A program made the position numbers and the translations under genes. A model generated the notes under the pieces. That model did not search any database and was not told the DNA's origin. It worked only from the letters and a program-made list of their open reading frames with translations. From positions 2,670,001 to 2,702,000 of the forward strand of contig JAIZWK010000001.1 in the NCBI GenBank assembly GCA_021498095.1: a stretch of DNA of 32,000 nucleotides, read 5' to 3'. Positions 12,203-24,456 of this stretch are shown one piece after another. This stretch comes from Candidatus Harpocratesius repetitus (lineage in GTDB: Archaea > Asgardarchaeota > Lokiarchaeia > Sigyniarchaeales > Promethearchaeaceae). Position 1 is the first letter of the stretch. Every line of letters starts with the position of its first letter.

Positions 12203-13900
12203 TTAATTAATTTTTCTATGTGTATTTTCAAAAATTGCACCAAATTTAGCACTTGATACAATTCTCGGATATAAAAATAGAAAACCCTTGTTATTCTTTA
12301 TAGGAGGGCGTTTCCATTTTGCTTTTCTCTCTTCTAATTCTTGTTCTGAAATAAGAATATTCAATTTTCTGTTTGGAATGTCAATTTCTATTTGATCACC
12401 ATCTTTAACCAAAGCAATAGGTCCTCCTTCATATGCTTCAGGACATACATGCCCAATACATGGCCCTCGGCTTGCACCACTATATCTACCATCTGTAATC
12501 ATTGCTACTGAATCTCCTAATCCCATTCCAATTAATAACGCAGCTGGAATTGACATTTCTCTCATACCAGGCGATCCTTTAGGACCTTCATAAATTATAA
12601 CTAAAATATCTCCCGGATTGACTTTTTTTGACAATAAAGCATCTCGTACTTCTTCTTCAGAATGAAAAACTTTTGCAATCCCTGTATATTTTAGCATTTT
12701 GGGGTGAACCCCGCTTTCTTTGACAATACAACCTTCTGGTGCTAGATTTCCTTTCAATACTGCAATTCCTCCATGATCAGAAATTGGATTATTTAAAGGT
12801 GCAATAAGTGAAGACGATTGTGACTTTTCACTCTGTGATTGGGTATAAATAGATATATTCTCTTTGAGTGTCGTACCAAGAATAGTAAGACAATTAAGAT
12901 GAAGTAAAGGAGATAATTCTTTTAAAATGGCCATGATGCCTCCAGATTCATGAAACTTTGTTATAGTTAATGGAGATGAAGGTTTTAATTTTATCAATAA
13001 TGGGGTTTCATCTGAAAAATTACCTATTTTAAAATGATCCCAATCAATATCAAGTTCATGTGCAAATGCCAAGCTATGAAGAACCAAGTTGGAAGAACCA
13101 CCTATTGCTAAAGCCAACCGAATGGCATTTTCAAGAGATTTTATGTTAACAATTCTAGTTATTGTAATTTGCTTTTTTATCAAATCCATTATTATGTTTC
13201 CAATTTTTGAAGTCAATTCCAACTGTTCTTGACTTAGAGCTGTAATTAACGCAGAATTGGGGATGGACAAGCCCAGAGCTTCAATCATAGATGCCATAGT
13301 GTTTGCGGTTCCCATCATATTACACGCTCCAGCAGAACAAGTATTTTCAATTATTAAGTTTAGGTCATTTTCACTTAAATCACCTACATTCCATCTACCT
13401 ATAGCCTCTTTGATATCAGAAGTAACAAATTCACCCAATTTAGGAATGTTACAAGGTTTCATAATCCCTCCAGTAAAAAATACGGTTGGTAAATTACATC
13501 TAATGGCTCCCATTAACATACCTGGAATAATTTTATCACATGATGCAATACAGATTAAAGCATCAAATCCTTGTGCCATTACTTGAGCTTCAACTGAAGC
13601 TGCAATTAATTCTCGGGAAGGTAATACATATTTACTTCGATCTCCATTATTTGCAATTCCATCACAAATACCTATTGTATTAAATTGCATAGGAGTTCCA
13701 CCTGCTTTTTTTACTGAAGAAGCAATTAAATTTCCAAGTTTTTGCAGATGAACATGACCCGGATTCATAGTGTTATATGAATTAGCAATTGCAATTAATG
13801 GTTTTTGCAGATCTGAAGGAGAATATCCGCATCCATGATAAAGTGCGCGTTTATATGCATTTTCAGGTATTAATTTTATAGGCATTTTGATGGTCGCCAA
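12203..13900 (-). CDS. ilvD: Dihydroxy-acid dehydratase family (IlvD/Edd) Fe-S dehydratase; start at TTG 13900 or ATG 13885
   Basis: [47 protein letters not shown] and TDGRYSGA motifs. The family is secure; the exact substrate is not. Confidence 0.85.
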
Positions 13901-13979
13901 AATTCTTTATTATAGAATAATGTTTAGTAGTGATTCACCTTATTAGTAATAAAATTAAAATAATAAATGCTAGCTTATT

Positions 13980-15893
13980 TTGGAGATGAGATATTTGAGT
14001 AAGAACCCAATAAAAACGCCTTCAATATCATCTAAAGAATCAAAAACAGAAAGTAAAAAAATAAACACTGTTAAACCTGTAAAAACTGGTGGAGAATTAA
14101 TTGTTGAGTATTTAATCCAAGAAGGTGTTCCTTATGTGTTTGGAATTCCCGGTCATGGATCCTTAGGTCTTACAGATGCTTTTTACCGGAACAAAGAAAA
14201 GATCAAAGTTATCCAACCAAAACAAGAAATGGCAGGCGTTCATATGGCTGTGGGCTATTTTCGAGTTTGTGGAAAACCATTAGCAGTATTCACAAGTATT
14301 GGCCCTGGTGGAATTAATACTGCTATTGGATTAGCCGATGCTTTCGTTGATTCGATGCCTGTGTTAGTAATCACTGGAGATACTCATGTTCACATGCGTG
14401 GAGTAGGAGTATTACAAGAAATTGAGCGAAAAAAAGATAGTAATTTTCCTAAAATTTTAGAACCGATCGTTAAACGGCAGTTTGAATTAGCTCATGTTAA
14501 TCAGATCCCAAAAGTAATGCAACGTGCATTTAATTTCATGATGACAGGGCGTCGTGGTCCTGTACATATCGATCTTCCAATGGATATTCAATGTGCCCCA
14601 TGCAATCTATTATTACCAAAGCCAATTAAACGTAGAACTACGGCTCGTCAACGGGGTGATTCTCAATTAATCAAAGAAGCAGCCTCAATGTTGATGAAAG
14701 CAAAAAGACCTGTTTTATGGATGGGAGGAGGTGTCGTTTCTTCTGAAGCATTTAATGAAGTTAAATTACTGGCAGAATTCATTGGAATGCCCGTTTTGGC
14801 TTCAATGATGGCTCAAGATGCCTTTCCTAACGATCATCCTTTATTTGCCTATTCAACTGGTTCAAAAGGAACTAAATGCGGAATCCATATTTCTCGGTCT
14901 GCAGATGTCGTATTAGCTCTTGGAACACGATTTGCAGATGAATCTACTTGCTCATATAAAAAAGGAATCGCTTGGAACTTTGGTCCAAATGAAAATGACA
15001 CACGTCTTATTCAAGTAGATATAGACCCTCATGAAATTGGGAAGAATTATCCTGTTGATATTGGAATTCTTGGTGATATTAAAGCAGTTGTTGCGGAATT
15101 ACTTACATACTTGAAGAATAATTTTAAAGCGAAAGATTACGAAAAAACGGAATATTTTGCTGAGCTTCAAAAGTATCGAGACGAATGGAAACAATTTATA
15201 AACGAATGGGCGAAACCAGAAATTGAACCTGTTATGATTTCCTGCGTATTGAAGGAGCTGCGCGCATTTCTTAATAGAGATGCTATTGTAGTTACTTCTT
15301 CTGGAAATGTTCAAGCGCAGATCATCCAAGAATTCGAATTTTATGAACCTCATACAAATATCACTGCAGGTGGTTTTTCTACTATGGGATTTGCGTTACC
15401 TGCTGCAATTGGAGCTAAATTAGCCGCTTCAGACAAACAAATCGTCGCATTAGCGGGTGATGGAGATTTTATGATGACAATGCAAGAATTACATACAGCA
15501 AAACAACTGAACTTAAATATCGTGATTATAATTTTGAATAACTCCGGTTGGATGGCGATCACCGATTTGCAACGCGCTGTATATGGTTTTGATAGATCTT
15601 ATGCCACAGAATTCTATGATCAAGATGGAAATATATATTCTCCAAATTTTTCAAAAATTGCTGAAGGATTTCACATTTGGAATACTAGAATCTCCAAGAA
15701 TTCTCAAATTGAACCAGCTTTAAAAGAAGCATTTGAACAAAAAGGTCCTGCAGTCATTGAAATAATTGTGAATAGAGATCCAAAATATAGTGGAAGCCCT
15801 GCTTGGGGTTGGTGGGATGTGCCCATTCCTGCTTATTTGGAGGATAAACGTAATAAATATGAAAAAGAAATTCTTGAAGAATCGTTGAACTAA
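13980..15893 (+). CDS. Thiamine pyrophosphate-dependent enzyme (ALS fold) with IolD-like signatures
   Basis: FGIPGHG, catalytic E in KQEMAG, SIGPG, GTRFAD, TPP motif GDGDFMMT...IIILNN, and C-terminal WWDVP. Likely start is the ATG at 13986. Confidence 0.88.
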   Translation: MEMRYLSKNPIKTPSISSKESKTESKKINTVKPVKTGGELIVEYLIQEGVPYVFGIPGHGSLGLTDAFYRNKEKIKVIQPKQEMAGVHMAVGYFRVCGKPLAVFTSIGPGGINTAIGLADAFVDSMPVLVITGDTHVHMRGVGVLQEIERKKDSNFPKILEPIVKRQFELAHVNQIPKVMQRAFNFMMTGRRGPVHIDLPMDIQCAPCNLLLPKPIKRRTTARQRGDSQLIKEAASMLMKAKRPVLWMGGGVVSSEAFNEVKLLAEFIGMPVLASMMAQDAFPNDHPLFAYSTGSKGTKCGIHISRSADVVLALGTRFADESTCSYKKGIAWNFGPNENDTRLIQVDIDPHEIGKNYPVDIGILGDIKAVVAELLTYLKNNFKAKDYEKTEYFAELQKYRDEWKQFINEWAKPEIEPVMISCVLKELRAFLNRDAIVVTSSGNVQAQIIQEFEFYEPHTNITAGGFSTMGFALPAAIGAKLAASDKQIVALAGDGDFMMTMQELHTAKQLNLNIVIIILNNSGWMAITDLQRAVYGFDRSYATEFYDQDGNIYSPNFSKIAEGFHIWNTRISKNSQIEPALKEAFEQKGPAVIEIIVNRDPKYSGSPAWGWWDVPIPAYLEDKRNKYEKEILEESLN

Positions 15894-16063: not shown

Positions 16064-17260
16064 TTATTTTTGGTAAGATTTCCAAACTTCTTCTAAATCA
16101 GGTCTGCGAATTGTTTCTTTGATATACTCGGCATATTCTTCGCCGGTTACACCTGTATCTCGACCGGTAATTTTCTTTTTACGTTCAAATTGAGCACAAA
16201 TATCTAAAGCCATTTCCAATTTCTTCGCTTTTTCTACAAAACCAATGTGGTTTAATAATAATGCAGTTGCTTTGATGATACTTGAAGGATCAGCATATTT
16301 TTCTCGACCTTCTTTAATCATTTTCAATGCAGAACCGTGAATGGCTTCAAACATTGCGTAACGTTTTCCAATGTTGGCACTACCAGCGGTTCCAACACCA
16401 CCCTGAATTTGACCACCTTCATCAGTGATAATATCACCATAAAGATTTGGAGCAACAAATACTCGGAATTGACTCTGACGGGCAGGATCAATCAATTTTG
16501 CAGTGGCAATGTCGATATACCAGTCGTCCCATTCAACTTGTGGATATTCTTTTGCGATTCTTTCAGCCATATCCAAGAATTTTCCATCTGTTGCTTTAAC
16601 TACATTTGCTTTTGTTATGACTGAAACTTTATTTATATTATTTTTAGCTGCATAATCAAATGCTAAACGGATAATTCGCTCTGCTCCTGGAGAGGTGATT
16701 ACTTTAAAGTCAATGGCTAAATCTTCATTAACATTTACACCTTTTGAACCTAAAACATAAGCACCTTCAGTATTTTCCCGGAAGAACATCCAATCGATAT
16801 TCTTTTCAGGTACTTTCACAGGACGCACATTTGCAAATAAATCTAAAGCACGACGCATGGCAACATTTGCACTTTCAATGTTTGGCCAAGGACTTCCTTT
16901 CCATGGAGTTGTTGTTGGACCTTTTAAAATAACATGACATTTCTTAATTTCTTCCAAAACATCATCAGGAATAGCTTTCATTACTTTTGCTCGATTTTCA
17001 ATGGTTAAACCTTCAATTTTGCGGATTTCGATTTTTCCACTTTTGATTTCTTCATCAAGCAAGAATTTTAGAATTTCAGAAGCGTGAGCTGTAATTGCAG
17101 GTCCAATTCCATCTCCACCACAAACACCAATTATAATTGGTTTTAATTTAGAATAATCGATCCAATCTCCTTCTTCTTTCATTTTTTTTACTCGAGCAAG
17201 TTGATCTCGGACCAATTCTTCGAAATGTTTAACGGCATTTTGAATTTCTTCTTCAGACAT
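16064..17260 (-). CDS. icd: Isocitrate/isopropylmalate dehydrogenase family protein; probably isocitrate dehydrogenase given its neighbours
   Basis: GGDGIGP, LKGPTTTP, FRENTEG, TKANVVK, DIATAKL, PNLYGDIITDE and FEAIHGSA motifs. Sits beside aconitase and ATP-citrate lyase. Confidence 0.8.
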   Translation of the reverse strand: MSEEEIQNAVKHFEELVRDQLARVKKMKEEGDWIDYSKLKPIIIGVCGGDGIGPAITAHASEILKFLLDEEIKSGKIEIRKIEGLTIENRAKVMKAIPDDVLEEIKKCHVILKGPTTTPWKGSPWPNIESANVAMRRALDLFANVRPVKVPEKNIDWMFFRENTEGAYVLGSKGVNVNEDLAIDFKVITSPGAERIIRLAFDYAAKNNINKVSVITKANVVKATDGKFLDMAERIAKEYPQVEWDDWYIDIATAKLIDPARQSQFRVFVAPNLYGDIITDEGGQIQGGVGTAGSANIGKRYAMFEAIHGSALKMIKEGREKYADPSSIIKATALLLNHIGFVEKAKKLEMALDICAQFERKKKITGRDTGVTGEEYAEYIKETIRRPDLEEVWKSYQK

Positions 17261-17350
17261 ATTTTATCACGGTTTTTTACTGATTGAAAAAAAATAGGTT
17301 ATTTATTAAAAAAAGAAAAATAATAGAGAGTTTTATTATATTATAATTAA

Positions 17351-19189
17351 TTAATCCCGGTAGAACAAGATTTCATCCCAAGGTTGTCGATATAATCGGG
17401 TTCGAAGGCGTTTTTGGTCAAATATATGTCCCATCATACCAATTGATCTACCCAATACAAACAACCCATTTAATGCCTCACTATTAAGTATATCTTGCTT
17501 TTCTTCTTCAGTAAAGCCAAGATTCTCTAATAGATCGAGGAAACAGATTCCAATACATCCATCTACGTTCAAAATTAAATTATTTCGTTTTGAAGTAGTC
17601 AATTTCTCAACTTCTAAAGCATAATCTAAGTATGGATGGGTGGGAAAATTGGAATTTACAAATTTTTTGAGTAATTGGACTCGAACATCAGGGTTTTGCA
17701 CAGATTTAATTCGGTGTCCAATTCCAGGGATATTTTTCTTTTCTACTTTCTTCATGTAATTTATGAATTCCATCGGGGTCATACCCTTATCCTTAGCCAT
17801 TTTGAAATATTTGGCACCGTCACTAATTGCACCGCCAAATCGAGGTCCAATGGTTAAAATTCCAGCAGCTAAGGAAGACATTAAATCTTTTCCTGCACGA
17901 GCCGTAACAATAGCATTATGAGCTCCAGAAACTGCAGGTCCATGATCAGCTGTTAGTTTAATTACCATTTCAATGTATTCTTGAGCATAATCAGGTAATT
18001 CTTTTTTGAACCAAAGCATACCAATAATGTATCCGATAGATTTCTTTTCAGTAATGATTTTATCTAATCCTTTACCATTATAGAGTGGAACATCTCCTCT
18101 ATCATCTGTAATAGTACAAACCATGTCTGTTGGGCGTCGAACTAATCCTTCTTTTACTGCTTGAGCAAAATCCATTGGGATTTTTGGAGGTTCAAATTCT
18201 TCAACAGGATCAATTTTTCCTTCTGCTTTTAATTTTTCAAATGTTTCACGAATCTTATCTCCCAATGTATCATATGTATCAGGAACAATTGCTCCAGCAG
18301 TTTTAAGCGCTGAATTTTTTGCATCAGCTGTTTCTTTATCGCTACCAGCCATTGCACCAGCATGACCAAATTGAAGTCCTTTAGGTAAGATTTTTGCAGC
18401 AGTTCCAGTAACCCAGATAACTAAAGGTTTTGTTATTTTTCCTTCTTTTAACGCATCCACAATCTTATATTCATCTGTACCACCAATTTCTCCTAAACAA
18501 ACAAGCATTTTGATTTTTGGATTATGTTCATAACGTAACAGATGATCAATTAAAGATGCGCCAGGATAACGATCTCCACCAATAGCAATACTTTCATAAA
18601 TTCCATCAGAATTCTGGGAAATCATAAAATTCATTTCATTACTCATACCACCAGATTTTGAAACAAATCCTACTGACCCTGGACGATACAATTTAGAAAG
18701 AATTACGTTTTCAATTGTACCCGCAGTATTTCCAATTCTAAAAGCACCGGCACGAATTCCTCCTACAGTAGCAGGCCCAATTATCCATTTACCCCGTTCT
18801 CGAGCAATTTTTCCTAAAATACGACTTTGTCTTTCAGGAATTCCTTCAGCAATGATAGCAACGGTTTTGATTGAATCGAGCTCTAAAGCTTCTTTACTGG
18901 TTTCAAAAGCAGATCTGAATGAAGCAAAGTTTACAACTACACTTGCATTAGGATGCTTTTGTGCAGCTAAAGAAAGATCTTTATAAACAGGTATGATAAT
19001 TTCATGTGTGCCAAAGAAAACTTTGTGATATGCAATATAATCAGTCTGAGTGGGACGAATAACTGCTGCCACACTTGGAGTTTTCCGTTTGCAAACATAA
19101 TCAAAATCAATCATTCGTTGGATCGCACGGGTTTGAAATCCATAGACAATGGCTTGAGTATTCTCATCAAATAATTCGTATTCTTCCAT
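17351..19189 (-). CDS. aclA: ATP-citrate lyase large (alpha) subunit: CoA-binding, phospho-His and citryl-CoA lyase domains
   Basis: DFDYVCKRKTPSVAA, IIGPATVGGI, SKSGGMSNE, phospho-His loop QFGHAGA, ADHGPAVSGAHN, GPRFGGA, IPGIGHRIKS, LNVDG and RSIGMMGH..DQKR motifs; 612 aa. Confidence 0.95.
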   Translation of the reverse strand: MEEYELFDENTQAIVYGFQTRAIQRMIDFDYVCKRKTPSVAAVIRPTQTDYIAYHKVFFGTHEIIIPVYKDLSLAAQKHPNASVVVNFASFRSAFETSKEALELDSIKTVAIIAEGIPERQSRILGKIARERGKWIIGPATVGGIRAGAFRIGNTAGTIENVILSKLYRPGSVGFVSKSGGMSNEMNFMISQNSDGIYESIAIGGDRYPGASLIDHLLRYEHNPKIKMLVCLGEIGGTDEYKIVDALKEGKITKPLVIWVTGTAAKILPKGLQFGHAGAMAGSDKETADAKNSALKTAGAIVPDTYDTLGDKIRETFEKLKAEGKIDPVEEFEPPKIPMDFAQAVKEGLVRRPTDMVCTITDDRGDVPLYNGKGLDKIITEKKSIGYIIGMLWFKKELPDYAQEYIEMVIKLTADHGPAVSGAHNAIVTARAGKDLMSSLAAGILTIGPRFGGAISDGAKYFKMAKDKGMTPMEFINYMKKVEKKNIPGIGHRIKSVQNPDVRVQLLKKFVNSNFPTHPYLDYALEVEKLTTSKRNNLILNVDGCIGICFLDLLENLGFTEEEKQDILNSEALNGLFVLGRSIGMMGHIFDQKRLRTRLYRQPWDEILFYRD

Positions 19190-19190
19190 T

Positions 19191-20474
19191 TTAGTTTCCT
19201 CCTTTCAATGCAATCGGCACTATTCGTGTCAATGGTGTATATCGATCATATACTTCAATTGGTATGTCTAATTCTTTTCCAATATCTTTCATCATTTGTA
19301 AACCTTCTTTTTCATATGGACCACCTCGACGAACGTAAATTTTTACATTCGCCTTTTTCAAAGCATCAACTTTTTTGCGAAATGCATTTACAATTCCAGC
19401 AAAAGTTGCTTTAACATTGGTGAAGTTTGCAATACCACCAGCAATGAAAAGATATTTAGGTTTACCTTCAGGGTCTGGATTACGAGTCATTAGATCAATA
19501 ACCGTTTCTGCATAGATTTCAGTATGCTCTAATGAAGGATTACCGGAATATTCTCCATAATTGCTTAATTCATTTCCGAATCCAAGGTCAGCAATAGTAT
19601 CAGTAAAAATAACCGATGCACCTCCTCCGGAAAGAAGGGTCCAGATATGCCCATTTGGATTAATTATTCTTAATTTTAAAGAAGCACCTGTTTTTTCATC
19701 CAATTCAGCTATTTTTTGTTCTTCAGGTGTTAATTCTTGCCCGAATCCTCCAGGAAATTCAATAGGGTTTTCTGGATTGCCCCATGTATCTGGATGCAAG
19801 AAATAAGCTGTATTATCTAAACGAGATTTCAAATCTAAAGGTACTATTTGTTTATCTTCAGAAATTGCAAATGGATTAATTTCCAAGAAAGCAAAATCTT
19901 GATCTTGATAAACATGTAGTAATCCTTTAATGAATTTCTCGACTAAATCGGATAGATCGCCCAAATCTGGTAATTTCCCTTTAAAATCGAAATTATCAAT
20001 ATCGGCATCAAAAGGAACGGGAATATGAGCAACTTTATCCCAATTTTCTTCTACGAAGATTCCTCCTTCAACTGAGAAATGAATGATATCGTGATCTCTA
20101 TCTGATGTTATTGAAACATAATATTCTGTTTTATGAGGAACAAATGGTTCAACTAATAATCTTTTTAAAACGCCTTTTTTTCCACGAATTTCAAATGTTT
20201 TTCCAAGTTTTTCGGCTGCAAATTGTTTTAATTGGTCAAAATTTCCATCCAATAACAACAAATTTGCTTTCCCGCGTTTACCAAACAGCTGATCAGGTTT
20301 TGCTACCAATCGATCAGTTTTCAACCAGGGCTGCTTTTCAGCTAGAGCATCAATATCGGTTTCCGGAGTAAGGATTGCTAATTTATTATGAAATTTAAAT
20401 TCCGGAAAATACTTTGGGAGCTGGCTTGCAATAAGCTTTTTTCCATCATATTCATAAATTGGTTTTTGTGCCAT
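19191..20474 (-). CDS. aclB: ATP-citrate lyase small (beta) subunit: ATP-grasp and citrate-binding domains
   Basis: [51 protein letters not shown], citrate-binding loop GGIANFT (which distinguishes it from succinyl-CoA synthetase beta) and VRRGGP motifs; 427 aa. Confidence 0.95.
   Translation of the reverse strand: [427 protein letters not shown]
19198..19202 (-). promoter_or_regulatory. Shine-Dalgarno GGAGG for aclA inside the last codons of aclB (probable translational coupling)
   Basis: Minus strand reads gga gga aac TAA a ATG. GGAGG is 8 nt before the aclA start, and only 1 nt separates the two genes. Confidence 0.7.
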
Positions 20475-20558
20475 TGTAGGTCTACTTGTTTTATTTATTT
20501 CTTTTTCTGATTTGTAAGTTGAAAAATAAAAAAATTATAAAAGACATTTGGAAAAAAA

Positions 20559-22499
20559 TTATTTTAATTTTGAGCTTACGTAGGTAAGTTTTCCACCAGC
20601 TAAGATTATTTCTCTGTCTCGCTCTGAAAGATCATAAGTGACAGGAATCTCAATATTTTGAGTAAGATTTTTCACGATAATAGGCTTTGAACCTTCCTTT
20701 AATGCTGTAGCAATACTCAAAATAGCCAGTTTATCTCCTTGGTTAATTTTATCGTAATCATCTGGATTTTCAAAAGTTAATGGAACTATTCCAAAATTTA
20801 CTAAATTGTCCCTATGAATTCGAGCAAAAGATTTAGCAATTTTAAATTTAATACCTAAGTACATAGGAGCCAATGCCGCGTGTTCACGACTTGATCCTTG
20901 TCCATAATTTTCTGCAGCAATAATTGCACCACCTTTATTTTCTTTTGCTTTCATTGCGCGTCCATAAAAATCAGGATCAATTTGCTCAAAAACATGCTTA
21001 CTGATTTCTGGCAAATTTGAGCGTAAAGGTAGTATTTTTGCACCAGCAGGCATAATATGATCAGTTGTAATATTATCTTCTACCTTCATTACTACTTCAA
21101 CTTCTTCAAAATTTTCTGGAAGTGGTTCAAATTCAGGTAAAGGTGCAATATTTGGACCTCTAATAATCTCAATTTCTGAACCATCAGTCGGTGGTTCTAA
21201 GATCATGGAATCATCAATATGAATCTCGTCAGGAAAAGTGAACGTAGGGTATGTTCCTAATTTTTTTGGATCGGTAAATTCACCAAAAACAGCTGCAGCT
21301 ACAGCCACTTCAGGACTGGTAAGGTAAGCATTAGCTGTTTTATTACCTGTTCGACCGAAGAAATTTCGATTAAAAGTTCTTACAACGGTAGCATTTGTCT
21401 TTGGAGCAAATCCCATTCCTATACATGGTCCACAAGCTGATTCTAAAATTCGAGCTCCAGATGAAACAATATTTGCCAAAGCACCATCTCGAGCAATTTG
21501 TTCCAATACTTGACGTGATCCAGGTGCTATTCCCAAAACGGTATGAGGTGCAATTTTTTTACCTTTCAATAAAGCAGCAACTGTCTCCAAATCTTTTAAG
21601 GAAGAATTTGTACAAGACCCAATCGCAACTTGATCAACTTTCATACCAATTAATTCTGATAATGGTACGACATTTCCAGGTGAGTGAGGCTTTGCTACTA
21701 AAGGTTCAATTGCAGATAAATCAATTTCAATTATTTCGTCATAATCTTCGTCAGAACCAGCAGGAATTTCAACCCATTGATCTTCTCGACCTTCTAACTT
21801 TAAGAATTGGCGAGTTACTTCATCACTTGGAAAGATAGAAGTCGTTGCACCCGTTTCAGCACCCATGTTTGTAATAGTTGCTCGTTCAGGTACGCTTAAA
21901 GTTTTAATTCCTGGGCCAAAATATTCGAGTATTTTACCCACTCCTCCTTTGACGCTAATTCTACGTAGAACTTCCAAAATAACATCTTTGGCAGTTACAT
22001 ATTCTTGAAGTTGGCCCGTTAATTTAATTCCAACAATTTTGGGTGTTTTAAGGTAAAATAAACCTCCACCCATCGCAACAGCAACGTCTAATCCACCTAC
22101 TCCTATGGCAATTTGACCCATTCCACCTGCAGTAGGTGTGTGGGAATCAGACCCGACCAATGTTTTCCCAGGTCGTGCAAAACGTTCTAAAAAGACTTGG
22201 TGGCAAATTCCATTCCCAGGTCGGGAAAATTTAATGCCAAATTTGGCAGCAACAGATTGTAAATAACGATGGTCATCTGGATTTTTAAAATCAGTTTGTA
22301 AGGTATTATGATCAACAAAAGAAACAGATAATTCAGTTTTAACGCGATCCAATTTCATTGCTTCAAATTGCAAATAAGCCATAGTTCCGGTCGCATCTTG
22401 TGTTAACGTTTGATCAATTTTAATGCCTATTTCTTTCCCAATTTCAAAAGTTCCTTCGACCATATGATCTTGAAGTATTTTTTTCGCGATTGAGCCCAT
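20559..22499 (-). CDS. acnA: Aconitate hydratase (about 640-aa type)
   Basis: TQDATG, VDHN, GNGICHQ, GSDSHT, IGSCTN, ACGPCIG (three Fe-S cysteines), NRNF, TDHI and YGQGSSREHA motifs. Confidence 0.93.
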   Translation of the reverse strand: MGSIAKKILQDHMVEGTFEIGKEIGIKIDQTLTQDATGTMAYLQFEAMKLDRVKTELSVSFVDHNTLQTDFKNPDDHRYLQSVAAKFGIKFSRPGNGICHQVFLERFARPGKTLVGSDSHTPTAGGMGQIAIGVGGLDVAVAMGGGLFYLKTPKIVGIKLTGQLQEYVTAKDVILEVLRRISVKGGVGKILEYFGPGIKTLSVPERATITNMGAETGATTSIFPSDEVTRQFLKLEGREDQWVEIPAGSDEDYDEIIEIDLSAIEPLVAKPHSPGNVVPLSELIGMKVDQVAIGSCTNSSLKDLETVAALLKGKKIAPHTVLGIAPGSRQVLEQIARDGALANIVSSGARILESACGPCIGMGFAPKTNATVVRTFNRNFFGRTGNKTANAYLTSPEVAVAAAVFGEFTDPKKLGTYPTFTFPDEIHIDDSMILEPPTDGSEIEIIRGPNIAPLPEFEPLPENFEEVEVVMKVEDNITTDHIMPAGAKILPLRSNLPEISKHVFEQIDPDFYGRAMKAKENKGGAIIAAENYGQGSSREHAALAPMYLGIKFKIAKSFARIHRDNLVNFGIVPLTFENPDDYDKINQGDKLAILSIATALKEGSKPIIVKNLTQNIEIPVTYDLSERDREIILAGGKLTYVSSKLK

Positions 22500-22528
22500 T
22501 TTTTTTGATCATCTCAAAAATTGAAAAT

Positions 22529-22547
22529 GTAGGGCAATGGTCCCTAC
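22529..22547. promoter_or_regulatory. GC-rich dyad GTAGGG-N7-CCCTAC upstream of aconitase; candidate operator or 5'-UTR hairpin
   Basis: Perfect 6-bp inverted repeat in an otherwise very AT-rich intergenic region, 30-48 nt upstream of the ATG. A TATA-like TTTATATT on the minus strand lies at about 22563-22556. Confidence 0.4.
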
Positions 22548-22679
22548 TTGATATAATATAAAGAAGATCAATTTTTAAAATTTCACTTACTCGATTTCAA
22601 GATCACAAATTATAAGATGATATTTTGGTTTCATGTTAGATAATATAATGAAATTTGCTCATTATTTCTGATTCGAGGA

Positions 22680-23378
22680 TCATTTTTCAGAATTTAGGGG
22701 GATGTTATCAATGCAGTGCTTCCCGAACATTTTTGGATTATTATGAATTTCTTCTAGAAATGAAGTGTCGTAGACCGAGTTCCATTGCGGCACGGAAATA
22801 CCGATACTAGTGGGAGGATATACTTCGATGCGCTGAATAGAGGAATTATGAAATAGGCTGTTGGGCAACGAGCGCAGATTTTTCGAATTATAAAAACAGA
22901 GTGTACGAAAAACGGGTAGATGTTCAAATAAATCAGGTAATTTTGAAACAAGGGGTAAATAAAGATAGAGCGCTCTGAGTTTGGGATGGCAAGTAAAAAA
23001 ATCGGCCCGAAACGAAATCAGATTGTAAAGAATCAAGGTAACGGTTTCTAATTGGGCCAAATGGTTAATCCATTCGGGCAGTTCGGTAAGAAACTGGTCT
23101 TCCAAATAGAGATGTTCAGTAGTGGGAAATAAATCGGGAAAGTGGGTTAAATGAGCCCAGATTTTATTTGTTGGAGTACGGTGAATACCAGCCAGATATA
23201 GCATATTAAAATATTTGAAATTAAAATCGGGGCCAAACACACCGTTTGTTTTCATGTATGGAGGATCTTGGGGATCAAAATCGACATTGGGGTCTTCCCA
23301 CATTACTTTCAAGCGCTGCAGAAAGCGGGCTTGGTCTGATGTGAGTTCAAGATAGGGAATGCGAAGAGTTTTAATCAA
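22680..23378 (-). CDS. Leucine-rich repeat protein (about 4 degenerate LRRs)
   Basis: HLYLEDQFLTELPEWINHLAQLETVTL, KLRALYLYLPLVSKLPDLF and TLCFYNSKNLRSLPNSL units. TTG start; many G/C-ending codons. Confidence 0.72.
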   Translation of the reverse strand: MIKTLRIPYLELTSDQARFLQRLKVMWEDPNVDFDPQDPPYMKTNGVFGPDFNFKYFNMLYLAGIHRTPTNKIWAHLTHFPDLFPTTEHLYLEDQFLTELPEWINHLAQLETVTLILYNLISFRADFFTCHPKLRALYLYLPLVSKLPDLFEHLPVFRTLCFYNSKNLRSLPNSLFHNSSIQRIEVYPPTSIGISVPQWNSVYDTSFLEEIHNNPKMFGKHCIDNIPLNSEK

Positions 23379-23532: not shown

Positions 23533-24456
23533 TTATTTTCCAAAAAGTTTTCGTTTTCCTTTAGTTTTGGGCATTTTTTTAGCAATATCTTGCTCGAATA
23601 AATTATCTAGATAAAAATTTACATGAAACCTGTGATATAAAATTTGCGCAATTAAATGAAGACCGTAGTCTGAAATTTGATTTGGAAATTCTCTTTCTGC
23701 TGCTGATTTTAAATCTTCAAGGTAAATTAATTTTGGTTTGTATTCATGAATTTTTCCCAATTTACGATAATAACGTCTATCTAACCTTTCCCATTCTTGG
23801 AAAATTTCGTAGATCTTGTTTGCGTACTTAAAAAGTGTTTCTAAGGCATCCCTCATAACTTCAATTTGCATTTCAGGATCTAGAATATCAAGTGCTTTCT
23901 CAATTAGTTCTTTTTCAAATTTAAACGGTATAGATTCCCAAGAAATGTTTTTAACTTTATTTTCTGTAGTGATCACTAAAGCTTGATCTGTTTTTCCCAT
24001 CAATTGGGATTCATCTTGCATTTCACTGAAGAGAAATGGATTTCTAATTTCATTTGGTAAAATTTGATTGAAAAAATGATTTAAATACATTGCTTGATTT
24101 AGAGATGAATCTTGATGAGATAAAATAATTATAGGAGTTTCTATGATTACAGCATGGAAAAGCAATAAAGTTATTTCTTCACCGTATTTTTCGAGTATCT
24201 GTGTTAATAATAATTTTTGTGATTTTCGATTAATTTTTTTTGAAATATCTGCGATCATATCGATGATTTCATAACCCACAACTTTTAATGAAGGTGAAAT
24301 AAACGCGACAAAAGAATGTTCACAGCAAACTCCAGAATCAATCTGCACTTTCTTCAGAGATTTTGAATCTTTTTCAAAAATGAAGCGTGGAAGTTTCACT
24401 TTCTTTTGAGTATGACAAGTAGGGCATTCTAAATTTAACCATATTTCTTCGCTCAT
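23533..24456 (-). CDS. Hypothetical protein: N-terminal CxxC...CxH zinc-binding module plus a possible DENN-like alpha/beta core
   Basis: ECPTCHTQKKV...CCEHSFVAFI...GYEIID at the N-terminus; LLFHAVIIETPIIILS...L segment. The ORF is secure; the domain call is tentative. Confidence 0.6.
   Translation of the reverse strand: MSEEIWLNLECPTCHTQKKVKLPRFIFEKDSKSLKKVQIDSGVCCEHSFVAFISPSLKVVGYEIIDMIADISKKINRKSQKLLLTQILEKYGEEITLLLFHAVIIETPIIILSHQDSSLNQAMYLNHFFNQILPNEIRNPFLFSEMQDESQLMGKTDQALVITTENKVKNISWESIPFKFEKELIEKALDILDPEMQIEVMRDALETLFKYANKIYEIFQEWERLDRRYYRKLGKIHEYKPKLIYLEDLKSAAEREFPNQISDYGLHLIAQILYHRFHVNFYLDNLFEQDIAKKMPKTKGKRKLFGK

Follow-up and report, generated by a model that had tools for sequence, protein, structure and literature searches.

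ATP-citrate lyase (ACL) acting in the role of citrate synthase (CS) has already been shown or proposed in other anaerobes. According to the account of that work in PMC12137691, the enzyme of Desulfobacter postgatei forms citrate and ATP within the citric acid cycle, as demonstrated biochemically (Moller, Schauder, Fuchs, Thauer 1987, Arch Microbiol 148:202), and for ANME-1 and ANME-2c, which contain only ACL, aconitase and isocitrate dehydrogenase (IDH), an ATP-producing ACL that provides 2-oxoglutarate was proposed from their genomes (Chadwick et al. 2022, PMC9012536). Here we describe a cluster of four genes, acn-aclB-aclA-icd, which lies in a 32,000-nt stretch of the genome of Candidatus Harpocratesius repetitus (the window; coordinates are positions in it unless another genome or locus is named) and encodes aconitase, the two ACL subunits and IDH. 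We tentatively propose, at somewhat less than an even chance, that ACL works in this organism as an ATP-conserving citrate synthase for the formation of 2-oxoglutarate and glutamate. The original prediction for this locus had offered two uses of the cluster, this one and the reductive carboxylation of glutamate-derived 2-oxoglutarate; their common premise stood, whereas the first use could not be kept as a novel idea, being already demonstrated, by the account mentioned, in D. postgatei and proposed for ANME-1/2c (PMC9012536).

The likeness to D. postgatei, as far as that account describes it, is that ACL takes the place of CS and the thioester energy is kept by substrate-level phosphorylation. 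The latter is, however, a sulfate reducer with a complete oxidative cycle, whereas the present host (labelled G000, its relatives G001, G002 and so on) is a fermentative archaeon that has only ACL, aconitase and IDH, and for which we infer the direction of flux as well as the cofactor of IDH. ANME-1 and ANME-2c resemble it in being archaea with ACL, aconitase and IDH alone, but they belong to another phylum and are methanotrophs with a Wood-Ljungdahl pathway, while G000 ferments peptides and has no CODH/ACS (CO dehydrogenase/acetyl-CoA synthase). The reductive form of the tricarboxylic acid cycle (rTCA cycle) in Chlorobium and Campylobacterota shares with it the two-subunit AclBA, aconitase and an NADP-IDH able to carboxylate; G000 differs in lacking 2-oxoglutarate:ferredoxin oxidoreductase (OGOR), succinyl-CoA synthetase (SCS) and fumarate reductase, and its AclA is far nearer to the Methanothrix and human proteins (837 and 760 bits) than to that of Chlorobium (only 431 bits). 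As with the cytosolic ACLY and IDH1 of eukaryotes, the same three reactions could lead from 2-oxoglutarate to acetyl-CoA, and the ACL is of a eukaryote-like sequence type, but G000 has no compartments, its ACL is split into AclB and AclA, and a reductive use is hypothetical there. The closest solved homolog, the ACL of Methanothrix soehngenii/concilii (PDB 6hxi, 6znw), is alike in its subunit split and catalytic residues.

The ACL of Asgard archaea has itself been published (bioRxiv 10.1101/2022.10.25.513756; PMC11976288), and in published trees the eukaryotic enzyme groups with those of DPANN and Thermoplasmatota, not with the Asgard enzymes (PMC11976288). A 2018 preprint took the presence of ACL, OGOR and IDH in Lokiarchaeia as an autotrophic rTCA cycle (bioRxiv 10.1101/385732), a reading that, judged from gene content, does not hold for G000. 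The Harpocratesius genome paper tabulated TCA genes across Asgard genomes and did not discuss the cluster (PMC8813620); ACL and citrate are not mentioned in the main text of the MK-D1 paper, nor are citrate and the TCA cycle in the papers on L. ossiferum and Nerearchaeum. To these the present analysis adds a genome-wide exclusion of the rTCA cycle, an exchange of IDH type within the cluster, and a CS pseudogene together with a korA remnant.

The cluster and its enzymes

Four intact open reading frames (ORFs) occupy 22499..16064 of the minus strand in the order acn-aclB-aclA-icd, with gaps of 84, 1 and 90 nt, in exact agreement with the four co-oriented genes of the original prediction:

20559..22499, minus strand: acn, fused-type aconitate hydratase, 646 aa (NF005558; Pfam Aconitase and Aconitase_C)
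19191..20474, minus strand: aclB, ATP-citrate lyase beta subunit with ATP-grasp and citrate-binding domains, 427 aa (PF24948, PF16114)
17351..19189, minus strand: aclA, ATP-citrate lyase alpha subunit with CoA-binding and phosphohistidine domains and a citryl-CoA lyase module, 612 aa
16064..17260, minus strand: icd, homodimeric-type isocitrate dehydrogenase, predicted to be NADP-dependent, 398 aa (Iso_dh, 220 bits)

A reading of the window ORFs also bore out the claim that neither CS nor any further TCA gene accompanies these four. The acn product scores 965 bits against the equivalog NF005558 (cut-off 612). AclB carries the Citrate_synth_N ATP-grasp domain (PF24948, 220 bits; cut-off 83) and Citrate_bind (PF16114, 250 bits), and reaches 443 bits with the Methanothrix ACL chain 6hxi_A, 334 with human ACLY and 192 with Chlorobium AclB. 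AclA is composed of the Pfam domains CoA_binding and Ligase_CoA and a C-terminal Citrate_synt module, and aligns end to end with Methanothrix 6hxi_B and human ACLY at the scores given above. Its alignment to 6hxi_B reveals the phosphohistidine loop QFGHAGA; the catalytic lyase Asp in NVDGCIG is kept (6znw, otherwise identical to 6hxi, has Ala there), as are the citryl-CoA lyase module's two His motifs, DHGPAVSGAHN and GIGHRIKS. On the domains and residues found for the beta subunit, the alpha subunit and the lyase module, AclBA is assigned as a two-subunit ATP-citrate lyase (EC 2.3.3.8), and the enzymes of the cluster look functional.

The icd product belongs to a divergent clade and falls under every NCBIfam equivalog cut-off, its best score being 252 bits with NF006673 (cut-off 509); its closest solved relatives are IDHs. 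It has the motif ESANVAMRR where the LeuB-like paralog of the same genome has ESAILKMRQ, and in the cofactor loop Lys or Arg stands where that paralog has an NAD-type Asp. By reference to S113 and N115 of E. coli IDH, we take Ser-x-Asn before VAxR to denote the IDH type and Leu the isopropylmalate dehydrogenase (IPMDH) type, and the loop residues are presumably to be read as in E. coli IDH and Thermus IPMDH. Because of this substrate motif and the Lys or Arg in the cofactor loop, icd is predicted to encode an NADP-IDH. An N-terminal extension of about 40 aa (window 17141-17260), charged and helix-like, is conserved in every Asgard icd ortholog of the alignment; the LeuB-like paralog lacks it.

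The module is under strong purifying selection. Compared with their counterparts in G002, a genome of the same genus, acn, aclB and aclA show 91-94% protein identity with saturated dS and dN/dS of ~0.02-0.03, the values for acn being 91% and ~0.03.

Citrate synthase and the remaining cycle in the host and its relatives

The host genome is a single closed contig of 4.36 Mb with ~32% GC, 93.6% complete by markers; at the level of the family its relatives are Promethearchaeum syntrophicum MK-D1 and Lokiarchaeum ossiferum, which agrees with the Asgard affiliation assumed in the original prediction. Across this genome Pfam Citrate_synt matches AclA only, and a tblastn search with the CS of a relative returned nothing. 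In the search for SCS, ATP-grasp_2 was passed only by AclB, and tblastn with SucC and SucD of relatives recovered only AclBA and genes resembling ADP-forming acetyl-CoA synthetase (ACD); in the search for fumarate reductase or Sdh, the sole full-length FAD_binding_2 protein was NadB (L-aspartate oxidase, 657 bits; cut-off 629). Three four-subunit 2-oxoacid oxidoreductases score best as PorA/VorA, a predicted specificity, and three others are of the indolepyruvate type; an intact KorAB, that is, an OGOR, was not found in G000. The genome retains an intact-looking orphan korB (G000:C1:1465231-1466073; L055:7223-8092, minus strand), whose protein is 51% identical to KorB of G004. Upstream of it are only a small rubredoxin ORF and, directly upstream, a 34-residue stretch matching the C-terminus of KorA, which looks like a deletion of korA, seemingly a recent one. 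The genome also yielded no CdhC of CODH/ACS, no Ldh-type malate dehydrogenase (MDH), no PYC/OAD carboxyltransferase and no glutamate synthase (GOGAT). Because Si-CS, SCS, fumarate reductase and intact KorAB are missing, an ordinary rTCA cycle is excluded for the host on its gene content, so that the premise of no Si-CS and no ordinary rTCA cycle extends from the window to the whole genome.

The search for both types of CS was less clear-cut for the Re-type than for the Si-type, of which there was none. One HMGL/LeuA-family protein (L002:1390-2736) is encoded in G000; it lies under all NCBIfam cut-offs, and its homologs are named 'LeuA family' or are misannotated. Because LeuCD-like and LeuB-like genes are present, the simpler reading is that it would be an isopropylmalate or citramalate synthase, though it may be a Re-citrate synthase. 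By these searches G000 has no recognisable citrate synthase.

Within the host family, CS and ACL behave as alternatives. ACL alone occurs in G000, G002, G004, G007, G010 and G011, and CS alone in G003, G005 and G008, while the same-genus G001 has ACL together with a decayed CS. The latter is a pseudogene (G001:C264, L070 1621-2551) that preserves residues 45-132 and 385-432 in different frames, with ~230 nt missing between them; at the syntenic site of G000 no CS remnant was found. The CS-only genomes G005 and G008 retain an orthologous aconitase. An in-place swap of aclBA for CS was not seen in the CS-only relatives; there, CS maps to other sites, and neither acn nor an IDH gene adjoins it. 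A class-wide anti-correlation of the two enzymes is unsupported: a tally by hand of 138 genomes of the class gave ~80 with ACL, 35 with CS and 17-18 with both, against ~20 with both expected if the two were independent.

Gene order was compared in 15 relatives at the order level and, more widely, at 69 loci, one genome per species, from several Asgard phyla, Thermoplasmatota and a few metagenome-assembled genomes labelled bacterial. The arrangement is no chance juxtaposition: aclA is immediately followed by an IDH gene at 34 of the 52 scorable loci of other genomes (monomeric in 6 of the 34), acn lies directly upstream of aclB at 17 of 53, and the full four-gene form is found at 10 of 47. The order acn-aclB-aclA-icd recurs identically in G021 and G036. 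In MK-D1, L. ossiferum and G007, acn-aclB-aclA is followed by a monomeric IDH of 748 aa (PF03971, 1239 bits); this type fills the slot after aclA in G007, G010, G011 and some Thermoplasmatota loci. Such a swap in place between two unrelated IDH types argues strongly that selection keeps the slot for IDH function and that the two enzymes, ACL and IDH, act in concert. In the same-genus G002, no icd follows acn-aclBA, and a monomeric IDH is encoded on a separate contig. Larger arrangements also occur, with sdhA-korB-korA divergent from sucC-sucD-aclB-aclA-icd in G004 and G009, and CS-acn divergent from sucCD-aclBA-icd in G031. The synteny on which the original prediction depended was thus observed in relatives, and what it had named as contrary outcomes, a full rTCA set or a CS without synteny, did not appear. 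Contigs labelled Nanopelagicaceae, Anaerolineae or 'bacterium' (L093, L127, L149, L150) encode, in the same gene order, an AclA with 52-76% identity to the Asgard protein; misbinning of archaeal contigs or lateral transfer is the likely cause.

Direction of flux

In the scheme that we propose, the module would be a self-contained, near-equilibrium bridge, acetyl-CoA + oxaloacetate + ADP + Pi <-> citrate <-> isocitrate <-> 2-oxoglutarate + CO2 + NADPH, in a heterotrophic, peptide-fermenting Lokiarchaeon that would have lost citrate synthase and the remaining cycle. Its net use would be that of an oxidative 'horseshoe' branch, in which ACL would replace CS and conserve the thioester energy as ATP, and aconitase and the NADP-type IDH would supply 2-oxoglutarate for glutamate and the transamination hub, as well as NADPH; oxaloacetate would derive from aspartate, or from phosphoenolpyruvate (PEP) via GTP-dependent PEP carboxykinase (PEPCK). 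Once ACL replaces CS, none of the three steps is far from equilibrium, and the sequence therefore cannot fix the direction of flux. Oxidative use is favoured by the gene content of G000, which has no other route to 2-oxoglutarate (no CS, a KorA remnant only, and no SCS, Frd/Sdh, GOGAT or CODH/ACS). It is also favoured by the either-or distribution of ACL and CS in the host family, with CS decayed where both are present and aconitase kept by CS-only relatives, by the biosynthetic character of the neighbouring genes (ilvB-like and ilvD) and, by analogy, by the precedents of D. postgatei and ANME-1/2c.

Several points weigh against an ACL acting as citrate synthase. The reaction toward citrate requires relatively high oxaloacetate. 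At least 17 genomes of the class have both CS and ACL, in one of them as opposite arms of one divergent cluster; simple redundancy of the two is thereby contradicted, and cleavage may have been the ancestral role of ACL. Glutamate can be taken up from outside by a peptide fermenter, which leaves an anabolic need unproven, and the lone LeuA-family protein might conceivably be a Re-citrate synthase.

Some of the same observations would fit the opposite direction, in which the module would be the organism's only breakdown path for the glutamate carbon skeleton, a possibility that we consider rather unlikely. Glutamate would be converted by glutamate dehydrogenase (GDH) to 2-oxoglutarate, carboxylated to isocitrate by NADPH-dependent IDH and turned into citrate, which ACL would cleave at the cost of ATP to acetyl-CoA and oxaloacetate; oxaloacetate would proceed through PEP and pyruvate to a second acetyl-CoA, giving 2 acetate in total. 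Such a route would be redox-neutral up to citrate, with one ferredoxin-linked H2 and ~1 ATP gained per glutamate, and G000 does encode the GDH, PEPCK, pyruvate:ferredoxin oxidoreductase (POR) and ACD that complete the path from glutamate to 2 acetate with that yield. Classical glutamate fermentation was not found in G000, which has no glutamate mutase E and no HgdAB 2-hydroxyglutaryl-CoA dehydratase above the cut-off, and the oxidative exit through OGOR and SCS is gone. The predicted NADP-type IDH, the sucCD-aclBA-icd arm of relatives, which unites both ATP-dependent rTCA enzymes, and the retention of CS beside ACL in at least 17 of the 138 class genomes point the same way. Glutamate catabolism leaves unexplained, however, the mutual exclusivity of CS and ACL in the host family and the decay of CS alongside ACL; the genes next to the cluster serve biosynthesis, half of the yield is lost to the ATP that ACL consumes, and no experimental precedent was found for prokaryotic fermenters. 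A 1468-aa open frame noted at G000:C1:4120284-4120490 (L077) matches the HGD-D dehydratase family only at its C-terminal end and below threshold.

It is less probable still that the module runs in both directions according to supply, balancing the glutamate pool against the aspartate and acetyl-CoA pools of an amino-acid-scavenging cell. The near-equilibrium of every step would permit it, aminotransferases and GDH link both ends of the module, and G000 possesses both a source and a sink of oxaloacetate; nevertheless, no sequence could falsify such a use, and the reading of the window ORFs showed the cluster to include no regulator gene.

Catabolism of imported citrate or isocitrate is very improbable. 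In one sister genus, G032 has the order sucCD-CitMHS-aclBA-icd, with the gene for a CitMHS citrate transporter (L046:6148-7587) between sucCD and aclBA, but no such transporter occurs in the cluster or the window, and the members of this family elsewhere in G000 are only 23-26% identical. The insertion in G032 hints at citrate exchange in that lineage. As little credence is due to the view that the module belongs to a full rTCA cycle of the autotrophic kind once claimed for Lokiarchaeia (bioRxiv 10.1101/385732), or else is a decaying relic: relatives such as G004 do have sdhA-korBA beside sucCD-aclBA-icd, but G000 is without SCS, Frd, KorA and Ldh-type MDH, which refutes the cycle for this genome unless unrecognised analogues exist, and intact catalytic motifs under strong purifying selection speak against a relic.

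Possible operon signals, neighbouring genes and implications

The spacers and the region upstream of acn were read by eye, with the following features:

22500..22679, minus strand: region upstream of acn, putative promoter, AT-rich, with a TATA-like TTTATATTATAT ~60 nt before the ATG
20475..20558, minus strand: acn-aclB spacer, 84 nt, T-rich, with T7 right after the stop codon, more T5-T7 runs and a TTTATAAT box
17261..17350, minus strand: aclA-icd spacer, 90 nt, T-rich, with T5, T7 and T8 runs

From these readings, 22500..22679 is likely the acn promoter, and aclB and aclA are clearly coupled, the start of aclA following 1 nt after the aclB stop; all four genes may be co-transcribed. Both longer spacers contain several T5-T8 runs plus TATA-like boxes, which could represent archaeal terminators and internal promoters, or merely AT-rich spacer. 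In the acn-aclB spacer, which measures 0-35 nt in relatives, some transcripts may terminate, or others may start from an internal promoter.

On the other side of the cluster, ilvD and an ilvB-like gene for a TPP enzyme (TTG start, 637 aa), at window 12203-15893, adjoin icd divergently; in G002 this pair abuts aclA directly. Just upstream of acn, two minus-strand ORFs (22680-23378, 232 aa; 23533-24456, 307 aa) match no Pfam family, and the 307-aa ORF adjoins acn in G002 too (65% identity). Apart from these, the window encodes MetRS, an epimerase, a VWA protein, an M1 peptidase, two MFS transporters, a GFO/IDH/MocA oxidoreductase, a phosphoesterase, a GNAT protein, a penicillin-amidase homolog and several ORFs without family.

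The published generalisation that ACL in Lokiarchaeia denotes an autotrophic rTCA cycle is corrected by these data, the cycle of the host being reduced to a three-enzyme bridge. The CS pseudogene, the korA remnant and the in-place swap of IDH provide a clear case of stepwise erosion of a pathway to a minimal bridge. Should the module instead degrade glutamate, it would constitute an undescribed route of glutamate fermentation in syntrophic Asgard archaea, whose reactions and eukaryote-like ACL type match the cytosolic reductive glutamine metabolism of eukaryotes. Because the module is shared by the cultured MK-D1 and L. ossiferum, a direct test of its direction is feasible, and that direction bears on how acetyl-CoA, citrate and glutamate were handled in the archaeal host lineage of eukaryotes.

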